Source: Alphaproteobacteria bacterium (lineage in GTDB: Bacteria > Pseudomonadota > Alphaproteobacteria > UBA6615). From it: a stretch of 64,000 bases of DNA. Position 1 is the stretch's first letter, and each line of letters starts with the position of its first letter. Under the pieces are notes generated by a model. The model did not search any database. It was given only the letters and a program-made list of their open reading frames with translations, and had not been told where the DNA came from. This document shows positions 35,601 to 59,817 of this stretch, piece after piece. The stretch spans positions 11,375-75,374 of the forward strand of contig JBFWVF010000012.1 of NCBI GenBank assembly GCA_050246875.1. Direction: 5' to 3'. Both the position numbers and the translations under genes were made by a program.

Positions 35601-35759
35601 GGCGCACCTCCTTCTGCCTGCGAGGGGCCCGGCGAGGCCCGCGCAAGGCTATAGCCGGCCGGACGGCGCTCGACCACCCCGATCGGCCGGTGGGCGGCAG
35701 CCGGCTTGGCGGATGTGCCGCGCATCGCTACGCTCCCGGGCCCTGGGGAGGAAAAGAAA

Positions 35760-38141
35760 ATGGCGGACTCCGCGCACGACCGCATCCTCGAGCGGCCCGA
35801 CAGCCTCATCGGCAAGCCGCTGCCGCGCCCCAACGCCCGCCGCCTCGTCACCGGCCGTGGCCGCTATGCCGACGACGTGAAGCTGCCGCGCATGGTGCAT
35901 GCGGCCTACCTCCGCTCGCCCTACGCCCACGCCCGCATCAAGGCCATCGACACCGCCGCCGCCCGCGCCATGCCCGGCGTCACGCACGTCTTCACCGGCA
36001 AGGACCTCGCCGCCGTCTGCAAGCCGTGGGTCGGCGTGCTCAACCACCTCAAGGGCCTGAAGTCGAGCACGCAGTACCCGATGGCGATCGATCGCGCCTG
36101 CTGGCAGGGCGAGCCGGTGGCCGCCGTGCTGGCGGCAAGCCGCGCCGAGGCCGAGGACGCGGCCGAAGCCATCGTCGTCGACTGGGAAGTGCTGCCGGCC
36201 TTCACCGACCCGGCGGCGGCGGCCGAGCCGGGCTCGCCGGTCCTCCACCCCGAGCTCGGCGACAACATCGCGCTGGAGGCCCGCCACGACCACGGCGACT
36301 GGGACCGTGCCGTGGCGGAGGCCGCCACCGTCGTCGAGCACAGCTACACCTTCGGCCGCCATACCGGGGTGACGCCCGAGCCGCGCGGCATCCTCGCCGA
36401 CTACAACGCCGCCGAGCACCGCCTGACGTGCTACCACTCGCACCAGGCGCCGCACATGGTCCAGGACCTGTTCGCCCGCCACCTCGACATCCCGAGCAAG
36501 AACGTCCGCATCGTCTGCGGCGACGTCGGCGGCGCCTACGGCATCAAGGGCCACCTCTACCCGGACGAGATCGGCACCGCGGCCCTGTCGCTGCTGGCGA
36601 AGCGTCCCGTCAAGTTCATCGCCGACCGCATGGAAGGCTTCGCCACCGACATCCATTCCCGCGATCACATCGTTCACGGCAAGCTGGCGATGGCCGGCGA
36701 CGGCACCATCCTCGGCTACTGGCTCGACGACCTCGCCGGCGTCGGCCCTTACTCGATGTATCCGCGCACCAGCGCCGTCGAGGCGCTGCAGGTGCTCAAC
36801 TACACGGGCGGGCCCTACAAGCATAAGACCTACCGCGCTCGCACGCGGGTGGTGTTCCAGAACAAGACGCCGATGAGCCAGTACCGCGCCGTCGGCCATC
36901 CCGTCGCCACGGCGGTCACCGAGACGCTGGTGGAATCGGCGGCCCGCGCGCTCGGGCTCGACCCCATCGACGTGCGGCGGAAGAACGTCATCCCCGACGA
37001 CGCGCATCCGAGCAGGAGCCTCACCGGTGTCCACTTCGAGGGCCTGTCGCACGAGAAGTCGATCGACCGCCTGATGGCGATGATGGACTATGGCAAGCTG
37101 CGCGCCGAGCAGGCGCGGCTGCGCGAGAAAGGCATCTATCGCGGCCTCGGCTTCGCCGCGCTGATCGAACTGACCAATCCCGGCGCCGCCACCTACGGCC
37201 AGGGCGGCGCGCGCATCTCTTCGCAGGACGGCGCCGCCGCGCGGCTCGACCCGTCCGGGCTCGTCATCGTGCAGGCGTCGATCACCGAGCAGGGCCAGGG
37301 TTCCGACACGGTGATCGCGCAGATCGCCGCCTCGGCCTTCGGCACGACCATGGACCGCGTGCGCGTCGTCACCGGCGACACCGACAACGTGCCGGTCGGC
37401 TGGGGCGCCGGCGGCTCGGGCGGCGCCGGCATCGCCGGCGAGGCCACGTTGCGCGCCGCCAAGGCACTGCGCCACAACGTCGTCGCGGTGGCGGGCGCAC
37501 TGCTGCAGGCCGATCCGTCCGGGCTCGACATCCGCGGCGGCAACATTGTCGATGCGGCGACCGGCAACGAGCGCATGCCGCTCGCCGAAGTGGCGCGCAT
37601 CGCCTGGTTCCGCCCCGACACGCTGCCCGAGGGCTTCCAGGCCGAGCCGATGGCCACACGCCACTACGTGCCGCGCGAATACCCGGCCGCCTTCACCAAC
37701 AGCTTCCACGGCGTGCAGGTCGAAGTCGACGTCGAGACCGGCTTCGTGCGCGTGCTCGACTACTGGGGCGTCGAGGATTGCGGCACCGTCATCAACTCCC
37801 TGCTGGTCGACGAGCAGATGCGGGGCGCGACGGTCACCGGCCTCGGCATGGCGCTGTTCGAGGAATGCCGCTACGACTCCGACGGCAACCTGACGAACGC
37901 CACCATGGCCGACTACCTGGTGCCGATGGCCGCCGAGATGCCGGAGATCGCCGTCGGCCACGTCTCGACGCCGACGCTCGAGTCCGAACTCGGCGCCAAG
38001 GGCGCCGGCGAGGCGGGCACGGCCGGCGCGCCGGGCGCCGTGCTCAACGCCGTCAACGATGCCCTGGCGCCGCTCGGCGCCGTGGTCACGTCGACGCCGA
38101 TCACGCCCGCGCGCGTGCTGGCAGCGCTCGGCAAGGCGTGA
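35760..38141 (+). CDS. Xanthine dehydrogenase family molybdopterin-binding large subunit
   Basis: RSPYAHARI, DVGGAYGIK, QYRAVGHP, GAKGAGEAG; clear paralogue of 17679-20072. Confidence 0.92.
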   Translation: MADSAHDRILERPDSLIGKPLPRPNARRLVTGRGRYADDVKLPRMVHAAYLRSPYAHARIKAIDTAAARAMPGVTHVFTGKDLAAVCKPWVGVLNHLKGLKSSTQYPMAIDRACWQGEPVAAVLAASRAEAEDAAEAIVVDWEVLPAFTDPAAAAEPGSPVLHPELGDNIALEARHDHGDWDRAVAEAATVVEHSYTFGRHTGVTPEPRGILADYNAAEHRLTCYHSHQAPHMVQDLFARHLDIPSKNVRIVCGDVGGAYGIKGHLYPDEIGTAALSLLAKRPVKFIADRMEGFATDIHSRDHIVHGKLAMAGDGTILGYWLDDLAGVGPYSMYPRTSAVEALQVLNYTGGPYKHKTYRARTRVVFQNKTPMSQYRAVGHPVATAVTETLVESAARALGLDPIDVRRKNVIPDDAHPSRSLTGVHFEGLSHEKSIDRLMAMMDYGKLRAEQARLREKGIYRGLGFAALIELTNPGAATYGQGGARISSQDGAAARLDPSGLVIVQASITEQGQGSDTVIAQIAASAFGTTMDRVRVVTGDTDNVPVGWGAGGSGGAGIAGEATLRAAKALRHNVVAVAGALLQADPSGLDIRGGNIVDAATGNERMPLAEVARIAWFRPDTLPEGFQAEPMATRHYVPREYPAAFTNSFHGVQVEVDVETGFVRVLDYWGVEDCGTVINSLLVDEQMRGATVTGLGMALFEECRYDSDGNLTNATMADYLVPMAAEMPEIAVGHVSTPTLESELGAKGAGEAGTAGAPGAVLNAVNDALAPLGAVVTSTPITPARVLAALGKA

Positions 38142-38254: not shown

Positions 38255-38947
38255 ATGCCCGCCGTCGAGATCATCAGTGCCTCGACCTGCCCCTACGCCC
38301 AGCGCACGAGGCTCGCGCTGGCCGAGAAGGGCATCGCGCACACCGTCACCGAGGTCGATCTCGAGAACAAGCCGGACTGGTTCCGCGCCGTGTCGCCCTA
38401 CGGCAAGGTGCCGGTGCTGCGCCACGGCGAGACGGTGATCTGGGAATCCTCGGTCATCAACGAGTACCTCGAGGAGGAGTTTCCCGAGCCGCCGCTGCTG
38501 CCGCGCGCGCCGGCCGCGCGTGCCCAGGCGCGCATCTGGATCGACTACGCCAACGTCCGCTTCGCCCCCTTCGTCTACAAGCTGCTACTCGCCCAGTCGC
38601 CAGCCGACCGCGCCGAGCGCGCCCGGCTGCTGCGCGAGTCGCTGCTGTTCATCGAGCGCGAGGCCCTGGCGAAGCGCAAGGAGGGGCCGTGGTTCCTCGG
38701 CCGCCGCCTGTCGCTGGTCGACCTCACCTTCTTCCCGCATTTCGAGCGCCTGCCGGCCGTCGCCCACTATCGCGGCTTCGAGATTCCCGAGGAGTGCGCC
38801 AACATCCGCGCCTGGCTCGCCGCGATGCTCGAACGCCCGTCGGTCGCGGCGCTGCACCAGCCCGATTTCGTCTACATTCGCAACTGGCGCAAGTACGCCG
38901 ACGATTCCGGCACCGGCGTCACGGCCGAGGAGATGCGCCGCTTCTAG
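38255..38947 (+). CDS. Glutathione S-transferase family protein
   Basis: CPYAQR, SPYGKVPVL, ESSVINEYLEE, SLVDL. Confidence 0.92.
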   Translation: MPAVEIISASTCPYAQRTRLALAEKGIAHTVTEVDLENKPDWFRAVSPYGKVPVLRHGETVIWESSVINEYLEEEFPEPPLLPRAPAARAQARIWIDYANVRFAPFVYKLLLAQSPADRAERARLLRESLLFIEREALAKRKEGPWFLGRRLSLVDLTFFPHFERLPAVAHYRGFEIPEECANIRAWLAAMLERPSVAALHQPDFVYIRNWRKYADDSGTGVTAEEMRRF

Positions 38948-39381: not shown

Positions 39382-40686
39382 TCAGCCGAAGGCGAGCTTC
39401 GGCAGGAACAGCGCCAGTTCGGGCACGGCGACCAGCAGCACGACAAAGGCCAGCGTGACCAGCACGAACGGCGTCACGCCCATGAAGATGTCCTGCAGCG
39501 GCACCTCGGGCGCCATGTTCTGCATGACGTAGACGTTGATGCCGACTGGCGGCGTGATCAGCGCCAGTTCCGTCATGATGACGACGAAGATGCCGAACCA
39601 CACCGGGTCGAAGCCCATCGCCTCCATCACCGGAAAGACGAAGGGGATGGTGAGGATCAGCATGCCCCAGACATCGAGCACCGCGCCGAGAACGAGGTAC
39701 ATGCAGACGAACAGCGCCAGCACGACGTACTTGCTGAGGCCGGCGTCGGTGATGGCGCCGATGATGCTGTCGGTGAAGTGCGTGACGACGAGGAAGGCGC
39801 CGATGATGTGGCCGGCGACGATGACGGCGAAAATCATGGCGCTGGTGTAGGCGCTGTCGAGCAGGGCCTGCCGCAGCCCCGGCCAGCGCAGCCGGCCCAT
39901 CACGCCGGCCACCAGCAGCACGCCGGACACGCCGATACCGGCCGCCTCGCTGGGCGTGAAGACGCCAAAGTAGATGCCGCCGAGCACGATGGAAAAGATG
40001 GCGATGATCGGCAGCAGCTTGCCGAGCGAGTCGAAACGTTCCGACCAGCTATGCGCGGGGCCGACCGGGCCCATCTCCGGATTGATGATGCAACGCACCC
40101 AGATATAGGCGGCATACATCAGCGCCAGCAGGATGCCCGGCACGATGCCGGCGATGAACAGATGCCCGATCGAGGTTTCCGTCCAGATGCCGTAGGCGAC
40201 CATGATGACGCTCGGCGGAATCAGGATGGCGAGCGTGCCGGCCGACGCGATGGCGCCGGTGGCCAGCTTGGGGTCGTAGCGGTAGCGTCGCATCTCCGGC
40301 ATCGACATCGGCGCGATGGTCGCGACCGCGGCAACGCTCGAGCCGGTGACGGCGCCGAAGCCGGCGCAGCCGGCGACGGACGTGATCGCCAGCCCGCCGG
40401 GCAGGCGCCCGAACCACTTCTCGACGCAGTCGTAGAGATCGACCGCTATCCTTGTGTGATAGACGAGCTGCCCCATCAGGATGAACAGCGGGATCGCCAC
40501 CAGCGTGAACGAGCTGCCGCGCTCGATGGCGTTCATGGAGATCTGGCTCATCGCCGGCACGAGGCCGACCATGACCCAGGTACCGCCGATGCCGACGATG
40601 GCCATGGAGAAGGCGATCGGCACGCCGATGGCGATCAGCGCCAGCATGATGGCGATGCCGATCCAGCCGATGGTCTGCGGATCCAT
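39382..40686 (-). CDS. TRAP transporter large permease (DctM)
   Basis: AIPLFILMG, GSSVA, GTLAILIPPS, ITPPVGIN. Confidence 0.93.
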   Translation of the reverse strand: MDPQTIGWIGIAIMLALIAIGVPIAFSMAIVGIGGTWVMVGLVPAMSQISMNAIERGSSFTLVAIPLFILMGQLVYHTRIAVDLYDCVEKWFGRLPGGLAITSVAGCAGFGAVTGSSVAAVATIAPMSMPEMRRYRYDPKLATGAIASAGTLAILIPPSVIMVAYGIWTETSIGHLFIAGIVPGILLALMYAAYIWVRCIINPEMGPVGPAHSWSERFDSLGKLLPIIAIFSIVLGGIYFGVFTPSEAAGIGVSGVLLVAGVMGRLRWPGLRQALLDSAYTSAMIFAVIVAGHIIGAFLVVTHFTDSIIGAITDAGLSKYVVLALFVCMYLVLGAVLDVWGMLILTIPFVFPVMEAMGFDPVWFGIFVVIMTELALITPPVGINVYVMQNMAPEVPLQDIFMGVTPFVLVTLAFVVLLVAVPELALFLPKLAFG

Positions 40687-40688
40687 GC

Positions 40689-41225
40689 TCAGGCCCTCTC
40701 GCCAGCGTTGTCACCGGCGGCGATGCGTGCATCCGGGTCGCCGCTGTGCGAACCGACGCGATCCGGGCCGAGGATCAGGACGACGACGAACATGACGCTC
40801 ATGAGGGCGCCGGCCACGCCGACGAAGGCATAGACCAGCGCGGTCGGAAAGCTGATGTAGTCGGACGCCTCGCCGACCGCGATCATGCGCGGAATTTCGC
40901 CGAACACGCGCCACGTCAGCAGCACCGAGAAGAACAGGCCGGCGAGGCACCACACGAGGTTGGCGGCGTAGCGCGCCGCGCCGCGCAACTTGCGATGGAT
41001 CAGTTCCATGCGAATGTGGCCGCCGTGCCGCGTGACGAACGGCAGGCTGGCGAAGAAGATCCACAGCAGCAGGATCTCGTTGGCCTCGATCGACCACACG
41101 ATGGGGTCGTTGAGGAGATAGCGAAGGCCGACATCGACCGTGATGATCGCCGTCAGCATCGGAATGAGTATGAGGGCTCCGAACCGGTGCAACAGCGTGA
41201 CGACGCCGTCGACGAGCCTGAGCAT
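40689..41225 (-). CDS. TRAP transporter small permease (DctQ)
   Basis: DVGLRY...WSIE, GHIRME, 4 TM segments, between dctP and dctM. Confidence 0.88.
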   Translation of the reverse strand: MLRLVDGVVTLLHRFGALILIPMLTAIITVDVGLRYLLNDPIVWSIEANEILLLWIFFASLPFVTRHGGHIRMELIHRKLRGAARYAANLVWCLAGLFFSVLLTWRVFGEIPRMIAVGEASDYISFPTALVYAFVGVAGALMSVMFVVVLILGPDRVGSHSGDPDARIAAGDNAGERA

Positions 41226-41356
41226 GACGAACTCCCTCCCCCGGACACTGTCCCCCGCGACCGCGCCTCTTGCGGGCGTCCGCGCGGGTGTCGCGGGCAT
41301 GCCGGCGGTCGCCCGCGCCCAAGCGCGCGGACGACCGCCCGGACCCGCTGCCGAAG

Positions 41357-42517
41357 CTACTTGCCGACGATGCCCTGGACCGGCTGGGTGACCGCCTGCC
41401 GCATGATCGCCTTCCAGTCCATCTTCTCGTACTTGGCGATGGCGGCGTTCATGTCGGCCAGCACGGCCTTGCCCGGCTTGCCGTCCTTCTCGAGGCCGGC
41501 GACGTACTCGCCGTCGATGTCGGCGACGGCCTTCTGCCAGACCGCGAACTCCTCCTTCGTCGGGCGGATCAGCTCGACGCCCTTGGCCTTGAAGGCGTTC
41601 AGCGCGGTCTCGCCCTCGGGTTCGTAGAATCCCTGCGCCATGTACGCGGCGTAGCCCTGCATGAAGTCCGCGACGACCTTCTTCAGGTCGGCCGGCAGCG
41701 CGTCGAACCACTTCGGCCCAAGACAGTATTCGAGGTCGACGGCGAACAGGCTGACCGCCGAGTGATACTTGCTGATCTCGTGCAGCTTGAAGGTCTGCAG
41801 CGCCGGGTCGTTCATGGCGACGCCGTCGACCACGCCGCGCTGCAGCGAGGTGTAGGCCTCGGCCGACGGCACGTTGACCGCGATGCCGCCGAGCGCCTGC
41901 ATGATCTGCGCCTGGATGCCCGCCGACAGGCGCACCTTCACGCCCTTGAAGTCGGCGATGGTGCGCAGCGGCTTGCTGCCGATGACGTTGTACGGCGGTG
42001 TGACGGTGAGACGGCCGGCATAGACGCCCTGCTGGTCGAACTCCTTCTTGAAGTACTTGGGATAGAGTTCGTTGAACACCGCGGTGCCGATCACCGAATT
42101 CTCGAACTTGAACGGCAGGGTGAGCATCTGCGTCAGGGAGAAGCTCTTCGGCTCGTAGATCGAGAAGCAGGCCGTGTAGTCGGCGATGCCGTCGCGCGCC
42201 GCCGTAAAGCCCTGGCGCTGCGGGTGCAGGGACTCGCCGGGATAGGTCTCGAAGACGATCTTGCCCTTGGTGATGGTCTCCAGCCGCTTGAGGCCGGTGA
42301 TCATCGCCTTCTCGAGCGGCGCCGTCGCCGCGACGTAGGAGGCATAGCGCAGCTTGATCGGCTCGCCGGTGTAGGTGACCGTGAACTTCTCGTAGTCGAG
42401 CTTGCCTTCGAGCCAAGCCTGCCCGTCGCCCTGCATCTCGGCGGCCGAAGCCGCCCCGCCCGCCAGCGTCAGCGTCGCCACAGCGGCCGCCAGAACCCAG
42501 TTCGGTGCCTTCGTCAT
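41357..42517 (-). CDS. TRAP transporter substrate-binding protein (DctP)
   Basis: Signal peptide, DFKGVKVR, EAYTSLQRGVVDG. Confidence 0.9.
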   Translation of the reverse strand: MTKAPNWVLAAAVATLTLAGGAASAAEMQGDGQAWLEGKLDYEKFTVTYTGEPIKLRYASYVAATAPLEKAMITGLKRLETITKGKIVFETYPGESLHPQRQGFTAARDGIADYTACFSIYEPKSFSLTQMLTLPFKFENSVIGTAVFNELYPKYFKKEFDQQGVYAGRLTVTPPYNVIGSKPLRTIADFKGVKVRLSAGIQAQIMQALGGIAVNVPSAEAYTSLQRGVVDGVAMNDPALQTFKLHEISKYHSAVSLFAVDLEYCLGPKWFDALPADLKKVVADFMQGYAAYMAQGFYEPEGETALNAFKAKGVELIRPTKEEFAVWQKAVADIDGEYVAGLEKDGKPGKAVLADMNAAIAKYEKMDWKAIMRQAVTQPVQGIVGK

Positions 42518-42850
42518 CGGAGTTCCTCCCCTCCTTGTGCTGCCTGCATGCGCAGGTCGCCGGATCTTGTCCCGCCGGCGAAGAGCGCCCCCCCGGGCGC
42601 CGCGTTCGACGCGCGGCGGAAGTCTACGCGGGTTGCAACCTTCGCCACCACAACCTTCGGCCGGGAGCCCGCCGTTGCCCTAGATCGGCCGTGACGATGT
42701 CTCGGCCGGTGAAACATGGCCTCGCGCGGCACGGCAGTTGTGAAGCGGCGGCGCGGTCGGCAAAGCGGCTGCGCCGGTATATCCTGCCGGCAGCGACGGC
42801 CACCCGGCTGCCATTGCCGGCAGTCCGGGGCCCGACGAGTTGGAGGATGC

Positions 42851-44083
42851 ATGGTTCATTTGCGCGAGATGCCCGAGCATCTGCGCAACGCGCTGGTCAA
42901 CCAGGAGGTGCCGACGTTCGACACCACCCCCTGGGTCGATGCCAGACCGTTGCGCGAAAGCCGGGTCGCCCTCATCAGTACCGCCGGCCTCCACCGGCGC
43001 GAGGATGCCCCGTTCACGCCCGGTGCCGGCGACTATCGCCTGATCCCGGACGACTACGACATGAACGGGCTGGTGATGAGCCACCTGTCGATGAACTTCG
43101 ACCGCTCGGGCTTCTACCAGGACCTCAACACGGCGTTTCCGATCGACCGGCTGCGCGAGCTGCGCGACGCCGGGGAGATCGGCTCGGTCGCCGGCCGTCA
43201 CTACTCCTTCATGGGCGCGACACCGCCCAACGTGATGGAGAAGGTGGCCCGCGATCTCGCCGGACTGCTGAAGCAGGACAGGGTCGACGCCGTCGTTCTC
43301 TGCCCCGTCTGACCGCAGTGCACGCGCGCCGTGGGCGGGCTTGCACACTATCTCGAAGACGAAGGCATCGCGACGGTCGGCATCAGCCTGATCCGCAAGC
43401 ACACCGAGAAGATCCGTCCGCCGCGGGCGCTGGCCGTGCCGTTCGAGCTCGGCCGGCCGTTCGGCGCGCCGGACGAGCCGGATTTCCAGCGCCGCGTGCT
43501 GCGCGACCTGCTGGGCCTGCTCGACCGCAAGTCGGGCCCCGTGCTGGAGGACTTCCCCGACCCGCCGCCGGGCGAGCAGGAGGAAGGCTACGGCTATGCC
43601 TGCCCGGTGAACCTCGCGCCGCCGGTCGAGAACCTGTCGGACGAGGACCTCGTGCGCCGCGCGCTGGAGCAGGAAATCGCCCTGCTGCGGCCGTGGTACG
43701 AGGAGTTCAAGGGACGGCGCAACGGCCGCACGGCGTTCGGCATCTCCGGCTGGACGCCCGAGGCGATCGCCGCCTTCCTCGCCAAGCTGGTGGTCGAGGA
43801 GGACAAGGCGGCACCGCCGGTCGAGGGCCTGTCGCTCGCCGTCGGCTTCAAGCGCCTCGCCGACGACATCCGCTACTTCTACACCGAGGCGGCCATCGCG
43901 CGGCCCGGCACGAAGACCAGCGATGTCGAGCTCGGCAACTGGATGTATGGCGAGACCATGCTGGGGAAGGTGCTGATCGAGATCCGCAACTGGATGCTCG
44001 ACCGCGACGATCCCCAGATGAAGGTGCTCGCCACCACCACCATCGTCCCCGGCCACCAGCGCTTCCGCACGAAGCACGGCTAG
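42851..44083 (+). CDS. GrdB/PrdB-like selenoprotein 1 (Sec at UGA 43310-43312, codon 154; 410 aa)
   Basis: SD GGAGG then ATG 42851; RVALISTAG, D.N..FPIDRL, HYSFMG, DAVVLCPV-U-PQCTRAVGGLAHYLE.EGI.TV, PPRAL.VPF.LGRP; track ORFs 42716-43312 and 43331-44083 are in one frame; SECIS-like hairpin follows. Confidence 0.88.
43318..43346 (+). promoter_or_regulatory. Putative bacterial SECIS element 1
   Basis: GTGCA-C-GC-G-CGCC-GTG-GGCG-G-GC-T-TGCAC hairpin starting 5 nt after the UGA, with a G-containing apical loop ~19-21 nt from it. Confidence 0.75.
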
Positions 44084-44110
44084 GCCACGGGAGACGCGAA
44101 GCGTACCGCG

Positions 44111-44139
44111 CGGGGCCCGTCGCGAAACGACGGGCCCCG
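44111..44139. other. Strong intergenic stem-loop between the two selenoprotein genes
   Basis: CGGGGCCCGTCG-CGAAA-CGACGGGCCCCG perfect 12-bp inverted repeat, weak U-tract. Confidence 0.65.
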
Positions 44140-44220
44140 TTGCGTTTCCGGCGCAGCGCGCGCGGCGACCGGGATGCTACGCTGGGCGCGAAGAAGACGG
44201 CCGCCAGCCCGCGAGGTGCC

Positions 44221-45450
44221 ATGGTCCACGTCCGCGACTTTCCCGGCTACATCCGGGAACAGCTACTCAATCTCGACATGCCGGAGTTCGACCGCACGCC
44301 CTGGGCCGAGGGTCCGCCGCTCGCCGAGCGTCGCGTGGCGCTGGTCAGCACCGCCGGCCTGCATCTCCGCGACGATCGCCGCTTCGAGGGTTACGACCCC
44401 GGCTACCGCGTCATCCCGGACGACACGCCGGCGTCCGAACTGATGATCAGCCACGTGTCGACGAACTTCGACCGCACCGGCTTCTACCAGGACGTCAACG
44501 TGATGCTGCCGCTCGACCGTCTGCGCGAACTGCGCGACGCGGGCCTGTTCGCCAGTATCGCCAGCCGCCACTACTCCTTCGTCGGCGCGGTGCCCCCTAA
44601 CCTGATGGAGCCGGTGGCCCGCGACCTCGCCGGCATCCTGCGGCAGGACAGGGTCGACGCCGTCGTTCTCTGCCCGGTCTGACCGGCCTGCACGCGCGCC
44701 GTGGGCGGGCTTGCACACTACCTGGAAGACGAAGGCGTCCCGACGACCTCGCTGAGCCTGATCCGCTCGCACACCGAGAAGATCAGGCCGCCGCGCGCGC
44801 TGTTCGTGCCGTTCGAACTGGGCCGGCCGTTCGGCGGGCCCGACCAGCCCGACTTCCAGCGCCGCGTGCTGCGCGACTGCCTCGATCTGTTCAACCGCCC
44901 GGCCGGGCCCGTGCTGGAGGACTTTCCCGATCTGCCACCCGGCAGCGAGGCCGAGGGGCACGGCTGGGCCTGTCCGGTCAGCTTCGCCCCGCCGGCGGCG
45001 AACCTCAGCGACAGCGAGGCGATCGAGCAGGCGCTGCTCGGCGAGATCGCGTTGCTTCGGCCGTGGTACGAGGACTCGCGGCGGCGGCGCGGCCGCACCG
45101 CCTTCGGCCTCTCGAACAGCACGCCGGAGGACATCGCGCGCTTCCTCGCCGCCTTCGCCGTCCATCTCGACGCGACGCCGAACCCGGACCCGATGAAGCC
45201 GCTCGGCATCGCCTACAAGCTGCGCGCCGACGACCTGCGCCAGTACTACATCGAGGCGGCGATCGCGCGGCCCGACCACCGCGCCACCGACATCGAGATC
45301 CTCAACTGGATGTGGGCGGAGACGACGCTGGGCAAGCTGCTCGTCGCCGTGCGCGACTGGGCCTATGAGTGCGACGACCCGGTGCTGAGGAAACTCGCCC
45401 TGTCGGCGATGGTGCCGATGAGCCAGCGCCACCACACGAAACACGGCTGA
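44221..45450 (+). CDS. GrdB/PrdB-like selenoprotein 2 (Sec at UGA 44680-44682, codon 154; 409 aa)
   Basis: GAGG then ATG 44221; DAVVLCPV-U-PACTRAVGGLAHYLE; in frame with track ORF 44701-45450; collinear with copy 1 from MVH to TKHG. Confidence 0.88.
44689..44715 (+). promoter_or_regulatory. Putative bacterial SECIS element 2
   Basis: TGCACGCGCGCCGTGGGCGGGCTTGCA, identical to the core of SECIS 1 at the same distance from the UGA. Confidence 0.75.
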
Positions 45451-45459
45451 GGCGCGGTA

Positions 45460-47673
45460 TCAGGCCTTCACCGTGATGGCCGGCGCCGTGCCGGCGCGCG
45501 CCACGACGCGGCCGACGATGGCCGCGTGCGCGTCGCCCGCCGCATGCAGCGCCACGAGGCAGGCCCCGGCGTGATCGGCCGGCACGCCGGCGACGAGACC
45601 GCCGGAGGTCTGCGGATCGACCAGCAGCGCCGCGCCGGGTGCCGCGAGATCGCCGATTGCCTCATAGACGGCGGCGCGGTTGGCCGGCGCGAGCGTGCTC
45701 TCGATGCCCTCGCCGAGGAGGGCGCGCGCGCCGGGCAGGGCCGGCAGCGCGGCGAGGTCGAGTTCGGCGTCGACGCCCGAAGCCGCCAGCATTTCGCCGA
45801 GATGGCCGGCGAGGCCGAAGCCGGTCACATCCGTCGCCGCGCGCACGCCATGCGCCGCGAGGATGGCGGCAGCCGGGCCGACCGGGCGCAGCATCGAGGC
45901 CATCGCGGCCGCGACCCACGCCGCCTCGGCGCGCGCGCGCATGTCGGCGGCGAGCACGATGCCGGTGCCGAGCGGCTTGGTCAGGACCAGCGCGTCGCCC
46001 GGCACCAGCCCGCGCTTGCGCAGCAGCCGGTCGGGCACACCGTGGCCGGTGACGGCGAGGCCGAAGGCGAGTTCGGCGCCCTCGCCGGTGTGGCCGCCGA
46101 CGAGCACGGCGCCGGCCTCGGCCAGCGCCGCCGCCGCGCCGCCGAGCAGCGCTGCAAGGTCCTCCTCCTGCTTCGCCGCGGGACCGTCCGGTAGCACGAC
46201 GGTGGCGAGCGCGGTGCGCGGCTGTGCCCCCATCGCCCAGATGTCGGCGAGGCAGTGCAGCGCGGCAATGCGGCCGAACAGGTACGGGTCGTCGACGAAG
46301 GCACGGAACTGGTCGACCGTCTGCACCAGCACCTCGCCCACCGGCGGCGGTGCGATGATCGCCGCATCGTCCGGCGCGTCGAGGCCGGCGAGCACGTCGG
46401 CGCGCGCCTGCGCCGGCAGGCGGGCCAGCGCGCGGCGCAGCACGCTCGCCGGAATCTTGGCACCACAGCCGCCGCAGCGCATCTGCGCAAGTGCCGCCTC
46501 ACCGTCCGCGCCGCTGCCCGCGTCCATCGCCGGAAGCTGCCGGTAGCGGCGCATCCAGCGACGGTCGATCCAGTCCTTGAGACGCCACATGGCAGCGCCC
46601 GAGAAGGCGATGCCAGCGCGCGAAGCCACGGCGCTCTTTTCGCCGGTCGAGATCAGCGCCAGCGCATGGCGCTGCGGCGTCCACGGGCGCAGTGCCCGGC
46701 CGGTCGCGGCGCGGCGCAGATTGTCGGCCAGCACCGGCCCGGCGCGCACGGCGTAGACGCCGGACTTCGGCAGGGCGCGGCCCTCGACCGACGCCAGATC
46801 GCCGGCGGCGAACACGCCCGGATGCGAGACCGATTGCAGCGTCGTCGCCACACGCACGAAGCCCTTGCCGTCGACCGCCAGCCCGGATGCGGCGGGCCAC
46901 TCCGGCGCGCCGGCGCCGGTGACGAGGATGGCGCGGTCGAAGGCGATGCCGGCGGCACCGTCGCGCTCGATGCGGCCCGCCGCGACGGCGCGCACCGGAT
47001 GGCCGAGCGCCGTGGCGATATCGCGATCGGCCAGCGCCCGGGTCAGCGCCCGCCGGACAGCGGCGTTGTGTGTCGGCACGATCTCGGCCGAGGCATCGGC
47101 GAGCACGACAGACAGGCGCGCGCCGGCGATCTTGCCGAGCCGGTATTGCAGCGCCATCGCCAGCTCCGTGCCGCCAGCGCCGGCGCCGATGATGGCGAGG
47201 CGGAACGGCGCCGTGCCGCGGGCAAGATCGCGTTCCCAGTCCGCGACCGCCGCCAGCAGTCCGTCGATCGGCTTGACCGCCACGCAATGCTCGCGCGCGC
47301 CCGGGATCGCCGCGGCATCGGGAGTCGAGCCGGTGTCGAGGGAGACGAAATCAAAGGCCACGGGCGGGCGGCCGCCGTCGACCAGTACGCGCCGACCGGC
47401 GAGGTCGAGCCCCGTGGCCGATGCATGCACCAGCCGCGCCCCGGCGAAGCGGGCCAGGCGCACGAGGTCGATATGGCATTCGGCGCGCGTGTAGTGACCG
47501 GCGAAATGGCCGGGGATCATGCCCGAGTAGGGCGTCTCGACGTCGCGCGCGACCAGCGTCAGCCGCACCCCCGGCTCCGGCCGCATGCCGAAGCGGCGCA
47601 GCACCGCGACATGGGCATGGCCGCCGCCGACCAGCACGATGTCGGTGCGGATCGGCACGGTCGGACGGTTCAT
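45460..47673 (-). CDS. selD: Selenide, water dikinase fused to an N-terminal FAD/NADH oxidoreductase domain
   Basis: N-terminal VLVGGGHAH, YSGMIPG, IIGAGAGG; C-terminal MRCGGCGAK, DDAA, QTVD, GGHT, LTKPLGTG, DVTGFGLAGH, DPQTSGGL. Confidence 0.93.
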   Translation of the reverse strand: MNRPTVPIRTDIVLVGGGHAHVAVLRRFGMRPEPGVRLTLVARDVETPYSGMIPGHFAGHYTRAECHIDLVRLARFAGARLVHASATGLDLAGRRVLVDGGRPPVAFDFVSLDTGSTPDAAAIPGAREHCVAVKPIDGLLAAVADWERDLARGTAPFRLAIIGAGAGGTELAMALQYRLGKIAGARLSVVLADASAEIVPTHNAAVRRALTRALADRDIATALGHPVRAVAAGRIERDGAAGIAFDRAILVTGAGAPEWPAASGLAVDGKGFVRVATTLQSVSHPGVFAAGDLASVEGRALPKSGVYAVRAGPVLADNLRRAATGRALRPWTPQRHALALISTGEKSAVASRAGIAFSGAAMWRLKDWIDRRWMRRYRQLPAMDAGSGADGEAALAQMRCGGCGAKIPASVLRRALARLPAQARADVLAGLDAPDDAAIIAPPPVGEVLVQTVDQFRAFVDDPYLFGRIAALHCLADIWAMGAQPRTALATVVLPDGPAAKQEEDLAALLGGAAAALAEAGAVLVGGHTGEGAELAFGLAVTGHGVPDRLLRKRGLVPGDALVLTKPLGTGIVLAADMRARAEAAWVAAAMASMLRPVGPAAAILAAHGVRAATDVTGFGLAGHLGEMLAASGVDAELDLAALPALPGARALLGEGIESTLAPANRAAVYEAIGDLAAPGAALLVDPQTSGGLVAGVPADHAGACLVALHAAGDAHAAIVGRVVARAGTAPAITVKA

Positions 47674-47697: not shown

Positions 47698-47796
47698 TGG
47701 CGGAAAGGAGTGGGAGTCGAACCCACCGGGCACGTGTCCACACGCGCCCCACCGGATTTGAAGTCCGGGCGCCCCACCGGGGTGCGGTTCCCTTCC
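47698..47796 (-). tRNA. selC: tRNA-Sec (anticodon UCA)
   Basis: Reverse complement GGAAGGGA...CCGGA-CTTCAAA-TCCGG...long variable arm...GTGGG-TTCGACT-CCCAC-TCCTTTCC-G-CCA; 8-bp acceptor stem, encoded CCA. Confidence 0.96.
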
Positions 47797-48642: not shown

Positions 48643-48871
48643 GCGACGCTCCGTTCAATTATTGAAAAGTATATGGATAGATTAGTAAAATGGTGCGAAA
48701 TCAAAGTATTTTCAACCACCAAGACCAAATAAATATCTCGTTCAATTTTTCTGGATTCTCCTGACAATGAAGCGCCCGGACTGGCGCGGCCTGCTCGTGC
48801 CACGGTTGTGCCGCGCGCCCCTGTCATCCTCTAGACTGCCGGCCAACAAGAGCGCGGGGAGGCTGGGTGTC

Positions 48872-51196
48872 ATGGGTGAGTTTTCGGTCGGCCAGCCGGT
48901 GCCGCGGCGCGAGGACTCACGCCTGCTACGCGGCCAGGGTCGTTACCTCGACGACATGGACCTGCCGCGCCAGACCTGGATGGCGGTGGTGCGCTCGCCG
49001 CACGCGCACGCGGCGATCCGCGCGATCGATACGCACGCCGCGCAGGCGTCGCCCGGCGTGCTGGCGGTGCTGACCGGCGACGACTACACGGCGGACGGAC
49101 TCGGCTCGCTACCCTCGATGGCCGCCTACAAGCGCCGCGACGGACGGCCGATGTTCGTGCCGTTCCGCCCCGCCGTCGCCGTCGGACGCGCACGCGTCGT
49201 CGGCCAGCCGGTCGCCGTGGTGGTGGCGCGCACGCCGGAGCAGGCGCGCGACGCCGCCGAACTGGTCGACGTGGACTACGCCGGACTGCCGGCCGTCGTC
49301 TCCGCCTTCGACGCGGCGCAGCCCGGCGCGCCGGTGCTGCACGACGACTGCCCGGGCAACGAATCCTACTACTACGAGGCCGGCGACAAGGCCGCCGTCG
49401 ATCATGCGTTTGCCAGTGCCGCGCATGTCGTCGAGCAGCGTCTCGTCATCAACCGCATCACGGCGAACGCCATGGAGCCGCGCGGCGCCATCGGCGACTG
49501 GGACGAAGGGACCGGGCGCTACACGCTCTACACCGGCTTCCAGCGGCCGTGGCTGTTCCGCAACGCCATCGCCGAGACGACACTGAAGATTCCCGAGACG
49601 AAGCTGCGCCTCGTCACCGGCGATATCGGCGGCAGCTTCGGCCTGCGCGGCTCGGTCTATCCCGAGCTGATCCTCGTCCTGTGGGCAGCGCGGCGCGTCG
49701 GCCGTCCGGTCAAGTGGATTGCCACGCGCAGCGAGAGCCATATCAGCGACGACGATGCCCGCGACAACATCGTCGACGCGGCGCTGGCGCTCGACGCGGC
49801 CGGCAATTTCCTCGCCGTGCGCATCCGCAGCTGGGCCAATCTCGGCGCCTATGTGTCGTTCCGCGGCGCGCTGCCGCCGGTGGTCAACATCGGCTCGGTC
49901 GCCGGCACCTACACGACGAAGGCGATCCACGTCGCCATCTCCGGCATGCTGACCAACACCCACTGCACCTCGCCCTACCGCGGCGCCGGGCGGCCCGAGG
50001 CGGCCTACATGATCGAGCGGCTGGTCGACCTCGCGGCGCGCCGGCTCGGCCGCGACCCGGCCGACCTGCGGCGGCAGAACACCGTTCCCGCCAGCGCCAT
50101 GCCTTACAGGACGCCGCTGACCTACACCTGGGACAGCGGCCACTTCGACGCCAACCTCGAAAAGGCGCTGGCGCTGGCCGACTGGGCCGGCTTCCCTGCC
50201 CGCCGAGCCGAGGCGGCAGGGCGCGGCGTGCTGCGCGGCATCGGCGTGACCAACACCATCGAGCAGGCAGCGGACGCCACCATCGAGACGGCCGAGCTGC
50301 GCTTCGATGCCGGCGGCGACGCGACGCTGGTCACCGGCTCGGTGCATCACGGCCAGGGCCACTACACGGTGCACAGCCAGATTCTCCACGACCGGCTCGG
50401 CATCGATCCGGCACGGCTGGCCTTCATCCAGGGCGACACCGACAAGGTCGCCTTCGGCATGGGCACCGGCGGTTCTCGCTCCTCCGCGATGAGCGGCGGC
50501 GCGCTGGTGATGGTCGCCGGCAAGGTGATAGAGAAGGGACGGCGCATCGCCGCGCACCTGCTGGAGGCGGCGGAGGCCGACATCGCCTTCGAGGGCGGCC
50601 GCTTCATGGTCGCCGGCACGGACCGCGGCGTCGACGTGCACGAGGTGGCGCGCGCCGCCTTCAACCCGGCGAAGCTGCCCAAGGGCATGGAGCCGGGCCT
50701 CTACGAGACGGCGACGTACAAGGCCGAGGCCGGCAACTTCCCCAATGGCTGCCATGTCTGCGAGATCGAGGTCGATCCCGACACCGGCGTCGCGCGGCTC
50801 GCCAGCTACGTCGTCGTCGACGATGTCGGCACGGTGCTCAACCCGCTGCTGTTGGAGGGCCAGATCCACGGCGCGCTGGCGCAGGGCATCGGCCAGGTGC
50901 TGATGGAGGACAAGACCTACGATGCCGCGACGGGCCAGGTGCTGGCCGGCTCGTTCATGGACTACGCCATGCCGCGCGCCGCAGACCTGTGCGACGTGAC
51001 GGTGGTCTCGAACCCGGCGCCGACGCCGACCAACCCGCTCGGCGTCAAGGGCGCCGGCGAGGCAGGCACGGTCGGCGCCCTCCCCGCCGTGACGCTGGCC
51101 ATCCTCGACGCGCTGGCGCCGCTCGGCGTGACGCATATCGACACGCCGGCGACCTCGGAGCGCATCTGGCAGGCGATGCGGCAGGCGCGGAAGTGA
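48872..51196 (+). CDS. Xanthine dehydrogenase family large subunit (CoxL form II-like)
   Basis: RREDSRLLRG.G.Y.DD, DIGGSFG, PYRGAGRPEA, GQGH, NPLGVKGAGEAG. Confidence 0.92.
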   Translation: MGEFSVGQPVPRREDSRLLRGQGRYLDDMDLPRQTWMAVVRSPHAHAAIRAIDTHAAQASPGVLAVLTGDDYTADGLGSLPSMAAYKRRDGRPMFVPFRPAVAVGRARVVGQPVAVVVARTPEQARDAAELVDVDYAGLPAVVSAFDAAQPGAPVLHDDCPGNESYYYEAGDKAAVDHAFASAAHVVEQRLVINRITANAMEPRGAIGDWDEGTGRYTLYTGFQRPWLFRNAIAETTLKIPETKLRLVTGDIGGSFGLRGSVYPELILVLWAARRVGRPVKWIATRSESHISDDDARDNIVDAALALDAAGNFLAVRIRSWANLGAYVSFRGALPPVVNIGSVAGTYTTKAIHVAISGMLTNTHCTSPYRGAGRPEAAYMIERLVDLAARRLGRDPADLRRQNTVPASAMPYRTPLTYTWDSGHFDANLEKALALADWAGFPARRAEAAGRGVLRGIGVTNTIEQAADATIETAELRFDAGGDATLVTGSVHHGQGHYTVHSQILHDRLGIDPARLAFIQGDTDKVAFGMGTGGSRSSAMSGGALVMVAGKVIEKGRRIAAHLLEAAEADIAFEGGRFMVAGTDRGVDVHEVARAAFNPAKLPKGMEPGLYETATYKAEAGNFPNGCHVCEIEVDPDTGVARLASYVVVDDVGTVLNPLLLEGQIHGALAQGIGQVLMEDKTYDAATGQVLAGSFMDYAMPRAADLCDVTVVSNPAPTPTNPLGVKGAGEAGTVGALPAVTLAILDALAPLGVTHIDTPATSERIWQAMRQARK

Positions 51197-51425: not shown

Positions 51426-52304
51426 ATGTCCGACAAACTCACAGTCCGCGACTACTTCAAGCGTTTCCCTGATGAGGACGCTTGCCTCCTGCATGTGATG
51501 GAAGTCCGCTACGGGCTCCGTCACGTCTGCGGCCACTGTGGGAAGGACGCGACCTTTCATCGGCTGGCGAAGCGCAAGGCGTTCTCCTGCGCGGCCTGTG
51601 GCGCGCACGTCTACCCGTGCGCCGGGACGGTTTTCGAGGATAGCCGGACCCCGCTGCAACTCTGGTTCTATGCCATCTACCTGTTCGTCACGACGCGCCA
51701 CGGTGTCAGCGGCAAGGAACTGCAGCGTCAGCTTGGCGTGACGTACAAGACGGCTTGGCGGATGGGCCACCAAATCCGCGACCTGATGAACAAGGCCGAT
51801 GGCTTCGCCATGCTGCGCGGCCACGTCGAACTTGATGAGGCGTATGTCGGCGGCCGGCGCAGCGGTGGCAAGCGCGGGCGCGGCGCGCCGGGCAAGACCA
51901 TCGTATTCGGCATGGTCGAGCGTGGCGGCCGGATGGCGGCGGAAGTGATCCCGAACATCAAGAAGTCGACGCTTCGCGAGGCGACGCTTCGCAACGTCGA
52001 GCCCGGCTCGCTGGTGTCGACCGATGAACTGATGAGTTACGGCTTACTGGACGGCGACGGCTACAAGCACGGCACGGTCGCGCACGGCCAGAAGGACTAT
52101 GCCCATTACGACTATCGCCACGACGCGGTGCACCACGTCAACAGCGTCGAGTCGTTCTGGCGGGTGTTCAAGCAGTCGGTAACGTCGACACATATCCATG
52201 TGTCGGAGCGGCACATGAACCGTTATCTCAACGAGTTCGCTTTCCGCTCAAATCATCGGGCGATGCAGAACGCGATGTTCGATCTTCTGATCGGCGCTGT
52301 CTGA
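51426..52304 (+). CDS. IS1595 family (ISXO2-like) DDE transposase
   Basis: Zn ribbon CGHC..CAAC, GVSGKELQRQLGVTYKTAWRM HTH, ELDEAYVGG, STDE, NSVESFW, YLNEFAFR. Confidence 0.95.
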   Translation: MSDKLTVRDYFKRFPDEDACLLHVMEVRYGLRHVCGHCGKDATFHRLAKRKAFSCAACGAHVYPCAGTVFEDSRTPLQLWFYAIYLFVTTRHGVSGKELQRQLGVTYKTAWRMGHQIRDLMNKADGFAMLRGHVELDEAYVGGRRSGGKRGRGAPGKTIVFGMVERGGRMAAEVIPNIKKSTLREATLRNVEPGSLVSTDELMSYGLLDGDGYKHGTVAHGQKDYAHYDYRHDAVHHVNSVESFWRVFKQSVTSTHIHVSERHMNRYLNEFAFRSNHRAMQNAMFDLLIGAV

Positions 52305-52431
52305 TCAATCGGCCCAATGCGGCATCAAGGTCGGCGCTATCCGCCGGCCCGACGCCGCGGGCCTCCTCCTGCGCAACAAACTCCGCTATGCGCCCTTCTT
52401 TGATGGCTTGGGCGAGCGTTAACATTCTCAC
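52228..52431 (-). CDS. Small hypothetical passenger protein (67 aa)
   Basis: GTGA overlap with the vapD stop; MLTLAQAIKEGRIAEFVAQEEARG; overlaps the transposase 3' end in antisense. Confidence 0.55.
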   Translation of the reverse strand: MRMLTLAQAIKEGRIAEFVAQEEARGVGPADSADLDAALGRLIRQRRSEDRTSRSASPDDLSGKRTR

Positions 52432-52754
52432 TCAGCGGCAGCGCTGGGCGCCAGCGGCAGCACATAATCGCCAACGGCCGGCATCAGATCGTTGTTGTCC
52501 TCGATCCGCAGCATCCGAATGTCGGTAACACAGGTGCGGAACCAAGGGTGCTTCGCCACAAGCGCTTGAACTGCAAGCACACACTTCACGGCGTCGATCT
52601 TGTCCGAGCTGGCAAAGTAGACGCTTCCCTGTTGGCGCTCAAAGCCGTGCTCTTCAAGAACGCGTCGAATGTCCTCATAGGCATTGCGCCCGTAGCTACC
52701 AGGGTGGTGCTTGTCGAGAAGTTCGGTATCCAGGTCAAAGACGATGGCGTGCAT
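52428..52754 (-). CDS. vapD: Virulence-associated protein D (VapD, Cas2-like endoribonuclease)
   Basis: MHAIVFDLDT..L, AYEDIRRVL..HGF..QQGSVY, PWF..CVTDIRMLRIEDNNDLMP; GGAG SD. Confidence 0.88.
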   Translation of the reverse strand: MHAIVFDLDTELLDKHHPGSYGRNAYEDIRRVLEEHGFERQQGSVYFASSDKIDAVKCVLAVQALVAKHPWFRTCVTDIRMLRIEDNNDLMPAVGDYVLPLAPSAAAE

Positions 52755-53145
52755 GCGCCGGCTCCATTGCATGGAGTTGGGTAGGTGCGAGCCGGTGCAT
52801 TCAACGGGGACGGGCGCTAGGGCTGACGACGATGTGTTTGCCGGCGAGCCGGTCAACACACGAAATTTCCGCCGGGTCTTGTGCCTCATGAAGGCAAAAT
52901 GAGTCCGGCCGCGCGGCGGTGTCAACGAGAAAACACCGCACCGCACAATGATCTGGCCTAGCCTGTCCGGGTTGGTTATCATGCGTCCCGGCGGAGGAGA
53001 CGCCGCCCCGACGCTCGAAAGAGCATCAGGGCGGCGGCCCCGATCAGCCTAACAAGGCTGGCGGTATGTTACGAACCATGGCCTCGCCTCCTTTCGTCAG
53101 GGCTCTGTGCGCGTGGCAGTTCTCAGGCTGGTTCACGCGACACAC

Positions 53146-53679: not shown

Positions 53680-54086
53680 GCGACGGACTCTGGCAGAGTC
53701 CATCGGCAAATACAACGGTACAACGCACGGGAATTTTGTCCCAAAACGGGGCGTTAAACGGCGTTGTTAAATCAAACGCCCGATGGATCGGACGGCGCTT
53801 ATATCGAAACTGTCGATATAACCATCAAACTGTTGGGGCTTAAGGGCCGAATCGCGGTCCCGTGCGTCAAGGGGATAATCCCGTTCTGTTAAGAATGGAC
53901 CTCTGAAACTTACAGAAAATCCGAAGGTCAATCGTCTACTGAAGTTATGAGCGCCCGTTCGACTGCCTGCGGGTCGCGCTCCATCACGCGGAGCAGAATG
54001 CGCGCTGCGACATCGGCACACGCCTGCCCTGCTCCCAGCCGTGTCCCAGCCGTGGAAAGGCTTACACATAGATCATAGAATTGAAA

Positions 54087-59809: not shown

Positions 59810-59817
59810 GTCCGGGA

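Follow-up and report, generated by a model that had tools for sequence, protein, structure and literature searches.

Tandem genes for predicted PrdB-like selenoproteins without reductase partners in an alphaproteobacterial genome

A 64,000-nucleotide stretch of the genome of an Alphaproteobacteria bacterium (lineage UBA6615; contig JBFWVF010000012.1, positions 11,375 to 75,374, forward strand), referred to hereafter as the window, was analysed around two collinear genes related to the reductase selenoproteins PrdB and GrdB. A first-pass annotation of this DNA had proposed that four apparent open reading frames (ORFs) are really two selenoprotein genes of 410 and 409 codons, each with an in-frame TGA at codon 154. 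This proposal is upheld by the retention of this codon in 33 of the 34 related loci, by homologues with Cys in its place and by a conserved hairpin downstream of it. Each gene appears to encode one continuous protein of ~46 kDa, in which UGA-154 is decoded as selenocysteine (Sec) by way of the SelA, SelB, SelC and SelD of the window. The best explanation of the observations as a whole, to which we assign a probability of about 0.55, is that these are single-chain Sec proteins of a stand-alone branch related to PrdB, which would act as reductases on their own. Coordinates are collected in Table 1.

Decoding of UGA-154 as selenocysteine

Apart from its single TGA, each gene is open throughout. 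The third-codon-position GC is 0.84–0.94 on either side of both TGAs, which is the coding signature of a 70%-GC genome, and both ATG codons are preceded by a Shine–Dalgarno-like GGAGG or GAGG (GGAGG lies 5 nt ahead of the ATG in gene 1). The context of the Sec residue is VVLCPV-U-P(Q/A)CTRAVGG in both proteins, as it had been written at first pass. The two proteins are identical at 252 of 410 positions (61%). Gene 1 is nearest to the first copies of related tandem pairs (~71% identity) and gene 2 to the second copies of the pairs in loci L032, L008 and L028 (65–62% identity); the tandem arrangement thus appears to be an old duplication, common to some relatives.

Four lines of support for read-through were obtained: conservation of the TGA, the existence of Cys forms and of split database records, a co-varying hairpin, and a single predicted fold over the junction. 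The 34 related loci come from a scan of one genome per species with peptide patterns that exclude the Sec site. By record title they belong to Alphaproteobacteria/Rhodospirillaceae metagenome-assembled genomes (MAGs), Desulfobulbaceae, Desulfarculaceae, Desulfatibacillum, Burkholderiales, Acidobacteria, Pseudomonadales and Spirochaetaceae. The one locus not counted as TGA (L052) has a run of N at the homologous codon. When 41 related genomes were searched, 20 had a match; 17 of the 18 near-full-length matches carry exactly one in-frame TGA and the remaining one carries none.

An exhaustive profile-free protein search returned 2354 representatives at E ≤ 0.001, 232 of them at E ≤ 1e-30. Most of the best 150 are either ~245-aa fragments that start at about query residue 161 or 153-aa proteins that end exactly at residue 153, which correspond to the two gene halves as seen by gene callers, while 16–18 of the 150 are full-length (354–419 aa). 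All 15 full-length database proteins (379–419 aa) that were aligned (alignment A1) have Cys at position 154. The earlier expectation that homologues would show TGA or Cys at the Sec position, with both halves in frame, was therefore confirmed when the check was run. In a separate word-index search the best 120 matches were all 230–257 aa long, had no Pfam domain and, where named, were called ‘hypothetical protein’. The databases thus hold the family mostly as fragments under that name, in agreement with the first-pass view that automated annotation splits the gene.

AlphaFold2 predicted a single body for the read-through protein (mean predicted local distance difference test score (pLDDT) 89.8; predicted template modelling score 0.89), with Sec154 placed between a strand (residues 147–151) and a helix (residues 157–170). 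Contigs of four DNA runs were also compared with the window; no RNA run containing the stretch was listed. A contig of run X1 spans the first TGA without difference; the run contigs break at stretches that are identical between the paralogues, and the second TGA is not bridged. These identical stretches, each of ~31 nt, flank the UGA region of both genes (43277–43308 and 43319–43350 in gene 1; 44647–44678 and 44689–44720 in gene 2). The near-UGA nucleotide identity of the paralogues contrasts with the 61% identity of their proteins, and the public-run contigs break exactly there.

The fourth line of support is the hairpin. The selenocysteine insertion sequence (SECIS) of Escherichia coli fdhF needs a 17-nt upper stem-loop situated 11 nt from the UGA, with a G and a U in the loop, and the geometry of the hairpin found here is the same. 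Alignment A2 covers 66 nt from the UGA onward in 43 distinct sequences, and in it the hairpin occupies columns 15–31. Two pairs are unbroken in all 43 sequences: pair 15:31 (G-C in 38, C-G in 5) and pair 16:30 (C-G in 36, U-A in 5, A-U in 2). At 17:29, 14 sequences have a Watson–Crick pair and the other 29 a G-G mismatch, and the loop bases G22 and U23 are invariant. Cells in which both sides of a pair had changed numbered 14, as compared with 3.1 expected by shuffling, and none of 500 shuffles gave a value as high; the covariation score was 0.119, as compared with ≤ 0.044 for slid controls. Some of the compensating changes alter the encoded residue (R to C, G to A), indicating that the RNA pairing is kept at a cost to the protein. 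This pattern argues that the 17-nt hairpin starting 11 nt after the UGA directs Sec decoding.

Gene callers and public records handle the halves as separate proteins, as they would if the TGAs were true stops or sequencing errors and the halves were separate genes or pseudogenes. This is essentially excluded by the recurrence of the same single in-frame TGA over several phyla, the full-length Cys forms, the co-varying hairpin, the one confident fold that bridges the junction and the X1 contig that covers the first TGA unchanged.

Table 1. Positions of the genes and elements discussed (window coordinates, unless another record is named)
Feature	Position	Strand	Remarks
PrdB-like selenoprotein gene 1	42851–44083	+	ATG start; 410 aa; final stop TAG
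PrdB-like selenoprotein gene 2	44221–45450	+	ATG start; 409 aa; final stop TGA
Gene 1 in-frame TGA, codon 154	43310–43312	+	predicted to be read as selenocysteine
Gene 2 in-frame TGA, codon 154	44680–44682	+	predicted to be read as selenocysteine
SECIS-like 17-nt hairpin, gene 1	43324–43340	+	11 nt after UGA
SECIS-like hairpin, gene 2	44694–44710	+	same 31-nt sequence as gene 1 from the Cys157 codon on
Cys251 codon (A-C-P-V), gene 1 linker	43601–43603	+	disordered linker, residues 245–257, pLDDT < 50
C-terminal all-helical domain, gene 1, residues 258–410	43622–44080	+	AlphaFold2 of the domain alone: pLDDT 92.7, seven helices
selD fused to N-terminal pyridine-nucleotide-disulfide oxidoreductase domain, Cys form	45460 to ~47673 (start estimated)	−	Pfam Pyr_redox_2, AIRS and AIRS_C
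tRNA-Sec (selC), anticodon TCA	47702–47796	−	ARAGORN; Rfam RF01852, 71.8 bits; 29 nt upstream of selD
selB	56475–58400	−	GTP_EFTU, Beta-barrel_SelB, SelB-wing_2 and SelB-wing_3 domains
selA	58397–59860	−	PF03841, 532.8 bits; Se-cys_synth_N
Third candidate selenoprotein, AhpC/TSA/Redoxin fold, W-A-S-W-U-G-C, then tetratricopeptide (TPR) repeats	contig C1 of the same genome: 546621–547769 (locus L053: 225–1370)	−	in-frame TGA
Xanthine dehydrogenase (XDH)/CoxL-family molybdopterin-binding large subunit	35706–38141	+	best NCBIfam model (glyceraldehyde dehydrogenase alpha) below cut-off
Cys-type glutathione S-transferase (GST), S-T-C-P-Y-A-Q-R motif	38255–38947	+	NCBIfam GST-family models; GST N/C Pfam domains on the L024 orthologue
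Tripartite ATP-independent periplasmic (TRAP) transporter genes	39382–42517	−	DctM 39382–40686; small ORF without family 40711–41322; DctP 41357–42517; divergent from gene 1
Second XDH/CoxL-family large subunit	48767–51196	+	beyond selC, beside IS1595 transposase
TauD-like dioxygenase in related loci	L043: 11359–12210; L050: 11251–12102; L052: 1408–2538; L054: 6762–7613		directly downstream of the PrdB-like gene

A branch of the GrdB/PrdB superfamily without partners

The best NCBIfam model for both proteins was that of PrdB, TIGR04483, with 106.5 bits (E 1e-30) for gene 1 and 104.5 bits for gene 2. In gene 1 the match aligns residues 28–224 with profile positions 20–218 of 238; as this is near the full profile, the N-terminal 225 residues are a distant full-length homologue of PrdB. 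Both scores fall far short of the model's cut-off of 300. Pfam GRDB (PF07355) matched at 30.9 and 31.3 bits, above its gathering score of 22, over residues 80–151 or 18–151, and these matches cover only positions 273–345 or 206–345 of the 347 in the profile. The TIGR01918 subfamily model reached 40.0 and 35.1 bits, below its cut-off of 65.45, and the scores of the NCBIfam models for GrdB, GrdF and GrdH were likewise far below their cut-offs. The kinship with GrdB and PrdB recognized at first pass therefore holds. By curated thresholds the proteins are classed as neither PrdB nor GrdB, and they belong to a large, widely distributed orphan branch of the superfamily.

No Pfam or NCBIfam model spans the whole protein, and residues ~258–410 match no family. 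This C-terminal region, which the first-pass annotation could not assign, is conserved in the family and is predicted to be all-helical. Its best matches in the PDB (Z 5.6; Foldseek E 1.4) mean the lack of a match and not a new fold. Foldseek comparison of the whole model with the PDB gave nothing at E ≤ 0.001, a sequence search of the PDB (query P0001) gave nothing at E ≤ 1, and a wide VIA-align search with the whole model returned, for residues 32–243, no more than generic matches of Rossmann, LacI or SDR type.

The conserved motif is P-V-U-P-x-C, with U154-P-x-C157 in both genes. In an alignment of 33 sequences UxxC is invariant, as are S80, D84, P152-V153 (in Sec forms), P155, C157, E169, T175, P191-R192, G201, G205, P207, Q213 and E275. 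The linker's Cys-Pro occurs without exception in the 42 distinct full-length Sec forms, and at least 90% of the 33 sequences, Cys forms included, have it as well. The first-pass annotation had described the proteins by a CxxUxxC motif. This does not hold for the family: among the 42 Sec forms, whose selection pattern left the position out, residue −3 to Sec is mostly Val (31), with Cys in 5, Ser in 4, and Ala and Thr in one each. The third Cys that is conserved is Cys251, which had been listed at first pass only as part of ‘ACPV’. One natural Cys homologue (P0123) falls in a protein-atlas cluster with the automatic name ‘glycine/sarcosine/betaine reductase selenoprotein B family protein’. We conclude that the architecture consists of an N-terminal α/β domain collinear with PrdB, a flexible Cys-Pro linker and a family-specific C-terminal domain of seven helices.

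The first-pass annotation had found no reductase partners in the window, and this was borne out genome-wide. The genome is a 48-contig draft that is 98.86% complete; in it PF09338 (GrdE/PrdA) had no match at E up to 0.1, PF04723 (GrdA) had no match, and the only GRDB matches are the two genes described here. Thirteen of the 15 genomes in which the long orthologue occurs gave no PF09338 match, which indicates that the family is independent of the pyruvoyl subunit. Among the 41 relatives it occurs in genomes G009, G018 and G024, with one sub-threshold match in G028. In G009 and G024 the PF09338 gene adjoins a different GrdB-like gene, also with an in-frame TGA, whose product is 28% identical to the window protein. 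We conclude from these distributions that the family most probably depends neither on the pyruvoyl subunit (PrdA/GrdE) nor on GrdA.

The PF09338 loci lie at G009:C1:1792322–1794858 and G024:C131:13392–15925, and on contigs C232 and C331 of G018. These three genomes belong to the same family as the host of the window, and their PF09338 genes, which in G009 and G024 adjoin the GrdB-like gene, look like part of a Grd-type reductase that is absent from the window's genome.

The above-threshold GRDB match, the draft state of the genome and the PF09338 genes of G009, G018 and G024 could be taken to indicate ordinary PrdB or GrdB subunits of a Stickland-type reductase, with partners encoded elsewhere or unassembled. 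The failure of PF09338 and PF04723 to match in so complete a genome, the scores far under the PrdB, GrdB, GrdF, GrdH and TIGR01918 cut-offs, the ~185 extra residues and the pairing of PF09338 with a different gene in G009 and G024 all speak against such subunits, which we regard as essentially excluded.

Selenium machinery and gene neighbourhood

Genes 1 and 2 converge on the selD fusion and the tRNA-Sec gene, and selA and selB lie nearby, so that all four sel genes are in the window, as had been noted at first pass. The L024 orthologue of the selD fusion scored 460.9 bits with TIGR03169 ‘Nterm_to_SelD’ (cut-off 310) and 288.8 bits with TIGR00476 selD (cut-off 125). The genome was screened for TGAs flanked by coding-type composition, a heuristic that may miss selenoproteins. 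Nearly all of its 99 candidates are neighbouring genes that share a frame by chance, and no Sec-type formate dehydrogenase motif was seen among them. Besides the pair it brought out one clear case, the AhpC/TSA-fold protein with TPR repeats. The genome gave no match to YqeB or SelU, which mark the other two selenium traits. The PrdB-like pair accounts for two of at least three predicted selenoprotein genes. The earlier suggestion that it is the main client of the Sec machinery is supported to that extent, and is tempered by the third candidate, of AhpC/TSA fold, on contig C1.

Neighbouring ORFs from 35 loci (the 34 and the window) were clustered and representatives were scanned for families. 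As the related genomes are kin, synteny counts within the clade do not amount to independent observations. The gene order in the close alphaproteobacterial clade is two CoA-transferase subunits (− strand), an acyl-CoA dehydrogenase (best match glutaryl-CoA dehydrogenase, below cut-off), two tandem XDH/CoxL-family large subunits, a GST, the PrdB-like gene or pair, and the convergent selD fusion. Among the 35 loci the GST cluster was found in 12, all of this clade, and the XDH-like and selD clusters in 15 each. The genes are closely spaced in L024 (26 nt from XDH-like gene to GST, 106 nt from GST to PrdB-like gene). The GST of the clade carries the motif S-T-C-P-F/Y-A-Q-R, which we take to be that of the catalytic-Cys type of omega-class GSTs (thiol transfer, reductive reactions). 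It stands directly upstream of the PrdB-like gene in nine loci, and is separated from it in the window, L022 and L032 by opposite-strand NIPSNAP and TRAP transporter genes. In the relatives whose neighbourhoods were mapped the XDH-like copies are in tandem upstream of the GST, directly between it and the acyl-CoA dehydrogenase, and no further conserved gene intervenes. The XDH-like neighbours were considered as selenium-dependent molybdenum hydroxylases, for which YqeB, not found in the genome, is the marker.

A different partner recurs elsewhere. In four lineages (L043, L050, L052 and G034) a 283-aa dioxygenase of the TauD/TfdA family lies directly downstream of the PrdB-like gene, next to both Sec and Cys forms; the enzyme of G034 is 58–59% identical to those of L050 and L043. 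The Cys-form gene of G034 is clustered with genes for a TetR regulator, an M19 peptidase, the TauD-like dioxygenase, an aldehyde dehydrogenase (ALDH) and an SsuA/TauA-like binding protein. In L040 a disulfide-reductase flavoprotein and a TusA-DsrE protein are encoded near the PrdB-like gene.

Further features of the window were recorded. Between genes 1 and 2 there is a perfect 11-bp GC-rich inverted repeat with a 5-nt loop and a T-poor tail (44112–44138, + strand); a promoter and terminator scan of 42400–45700 called nothing, this repeat included. The islet from the second XDH-like gene to selB (51426–55707) holds an IS1595-family transposase (51426–52304), an ORF with a weak Cas2 domain (52428–52982, − strand), an ORF with a RelA_SpoT domain (54087–54716, − strand) and two ORFs without family match. 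A 518-aa protein encoded at 33981–35537 (− strand) joins GNAT acetyltransferase and carbon-nitrogen hydrolase domains.

Possible chemistry and relation to known reductases

The closest characterized relative is PrdB of Clostridium sticklandii and C. difficile. The likeness consists of homology over nearly the whole TIGR04483 profile and of Sec in a UxxC motif at about residue 152–154, and presumably extends to a chemistry of nucleophilic selenol and resolving Cys. PrdB is a single domain of ~240 residues, whereas the window proteins have ~185 additional C-terminal residues that include the helical domain, and a third conserved Cys; PrdA was not found in the genome. The hosts also differ, as PrdB belongs to clostridia and the related loci are by record title mostly Alphaproteobacteria/Rhodospirillaceae MAGs. 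With GrdB, GrdF and GrdH (PF07355, TIGR01917, TIGR01918) the proteins share the above-threshold GRDB match and the UxxC, and only the last 75–140 of the 347 Pfam profile positions align. The motif of protein B is given as UxxCxxC in PMC13188914. The window proteins lack its second Cys, position +6 after Sec being Ala (U-P-x-C-T-R-A). As the genome gave no match for GrdA or GrdE, a carboxymethyl group would not be passed on to GrdA, and presumably no acetyl-phosphate would be formed.

Two systems provide precedents for action without a pyruvoyl group. Betaine reductase shows that the superfamily can handle a substrate unable to form a Schiff base, and FarB/FarE, the fluoroacetate reductase of Cloacibacillus porcorum, includes a GrdB-family selenoprotein, FarB, for which attack on C–X alpha to the carboxylate has been proposed without pyruvoyl (both from parts of PMC10838667). 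According to the same source FarB keeps a GrdE-like partner, FarE, and feeds GrdA/GrdC in a strict anaerobe, whereas the window proteins have no such partners. More generally, as far as we gather from parts of PMC13188914 and PMC10838667 together with general background, the selenol of proteins B attacks the substrate at its α-carbon, the selenoether is resolved to an Se–S bond by a nearby Cys, and a dithiol system re-reduces that bond. Pyruvoyl is needed only to activate primary and secondary amines, and the betaine- and fluoroacetate-specific partners are not processed to the pyruvoyl form.

By analogy, the family may work like PrdB or betaine reductase protein B but alone, a proposal that we put forward tentatively and at somewhat less than even odds. 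The Sec154 selenolate would attack an electrophilic carbon beside the carboxylate of a small substrate, and the leaving group would depart without Schiff-base activation. Cys157 would resolve the selenoether to an Se–S bond, releasing the reduced product, and thiols would re-reduce this bond via a mobile Cys251 loop; in this clade these would be glutathione and the Cys-type GST encoded nearby. Substrate binding, the task of PrdA and GrdE in the clostridial enzymes, would fall to the helical domain. Recycling by thiols is proposed because of the Cys-type GST upstream in the 12 clade loci and the disulfide-reductase flavoprotein of L040, and pyruvoyl-free action because of the precedent of GrdB-type enzymes acting on betaine and fluoroacetate (PMC10838667, in part). 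In its most specific form, the proposal is of a self-contained selenoenzyme, abundant outside the clostridia known for PrdB and GrdB, that reductively cleaves C–N, C–S or C–X bonds in substrates already equipped with a good leaving group (for instance quaternary amines of the betaine type, sulfonium compounds or other acids substituted at the alpha position), with glutathione or other thiols as reductant, the helical domain in place of the pyruvoyl subunit and the Cys251 loop as a built-in redox shuttle. That all of these particulars are correct is unlikely.

Several observations weigh against the reading of the proteins as stand-alone, PrdB-branch selenoenzymes. The single-sequence folding energy of the 66 nt after each UGA is no better than that of shuffles (z −0.11 and +0.72), as is expected in such GC-rich coding sequence; it is thus covariation that carries the case for a SECIS element, and some of the conservation near the UGA reflects the constraint on the encoded protein. 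The fold match of the N-terminal domain is to a generic three-layer α/β arrangement (Rossmann/LacI-like, Z ≤ 8.7). The Cys251 loop has a pLDDT below 50 in the model, so that its reach to Sec154 is hypothetical. The link with the GST comes from one clade and is not independent support, and outside that clade the gene has varied neighbours (TauD-like dioxygenase, ALDH, sulfatase, luciferase-like monooxygenase, TctC, major facilitator superfamily transporter). Finally, the genome itself contains no orthologue of the TauD-like partner, only paralogues 31–37% identical.

The main competitor is a general thiol/selenol redox protein without a carbon substrate (a reductase of peroxides, disulfides or persulfides, for example), in which UxxC would cycle as in a thioredoxin-fold selenoprotein and the helical domain would merely position a protein or small-thiol partner. 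In keeping with this, Table 3 of an early survey (PMC1088965, in part) classes the family among UxxC thiol-based oxidoreductases, and several neighbours would suit such a role: the Cys-type GST, the flavoprotein and TusA-DsrE protein of L040, and the oxidoreductase domain that the neighbouring SelD carries. Homology over the full length of PrdB, a C–N bond-cleaving enzyme, is harder to reconcile with it; invariant S80, D84, R192, Q213 and E275 point to a defined small-molecule pocket, and the neighbours are catabolic genes and transporters, not stress genes. We regard this explanation as doubtful, while ranking it first among the alternatives.

A less probable role, and in our judgement a distinctly improbable one, is the handling of selenium for the neighbouring SelD fusion instead of catabolism; the protein might, for example, reduce selenium or carry it to selenophosphate synthesis. 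In favour of this role, the gene and the selD fusion are convergent in 14 close loci as well as in the window, the gene of L040 is 2.7 kb from an unfused selD, and no other selenium trait was found in the genome in the searches for YqeB and SelU. Selenoprotein genes often adjoin the Sec machinery without serving it. Furthermore, most non-alphaproteobacterial loci have no selD nearby, and the Cys form of G034 lies in a TetR/TauD-like/ALDH catabolic cluster. True stops and ordinary Stickland subunits were essentially excluded above.

The stand-alone PrdB branch has probably been met before. In the parts of the following surveys that bear on it, the Sargasso Sea survey (Zhang, Fomenko and Gladyshev 2005, PMC1088965) lists a ‘proline reductase PrdB’ with UxxC and pfam07355, in 42 Sec forms and 1 Cys form. 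The Global Ocean Sampling (GOS) survey (Zhang and Gladyshev 2008, PMC2398784) lists 235 Sec and 110 Cys forms of ‘PrdB’ (38 GOS samples) and places it among the top three selenoprotein families in many marine samples. In the tables of these two surveys the family ranks third and seventh, respectively, and a 2006 survey (PMC1794560) reports ‘proline reductase’ selenoproteins in Anaeromyxobacter and Geobacter uraniumreducens. Like the surveyed ‘PrdB’, the present family is mostly Sec-containing, and many of its relatives are MAGs from marine records. The surveyed proteins are thus probably this family, likened by their descriptions, not their sequences, and the novelty claimed at first pass was to that extent overstated. 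The parts of the surveys and of two recent reviews (PMC9312934, PMC13188914) that deal with the family handle it as D-proline reductase, and we found them silent on the absence of PrdA, on the C-terminal domain and on Cys251. A literature search on PrdB-like and GrdB-like proteins and on marine PrdA/PrdB selenoproteins found nothing on a long stand-alone family. The genes are real, and the family is probably one already counted in surveys, misnamed and uncharacterized.

In the surveyed material few selenoproteins of the surface ocean are commoner than ‘PrdB’, although the only known function of PrdB lies in anaerobic clostridial fermentation and needs PrdA. If the long stand-alone form is the surveyed family, both the name and the function that it implies are wrong. 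The conserved architecture (U-P-x-C, the Cys-Pro loop and the helical domain) and the recurring partners, either the Cys-type GST with XDH-like genes or the TauD-like dioxygenase, offer starting points for assays, and a dedicated family model would repair many split or missing annotations. Were the most specific form of the proposed chemistry to prove correct, it would place Stickland-type chemistry outside fermentation and would be a main reason for the selenium demand of these bacteria.

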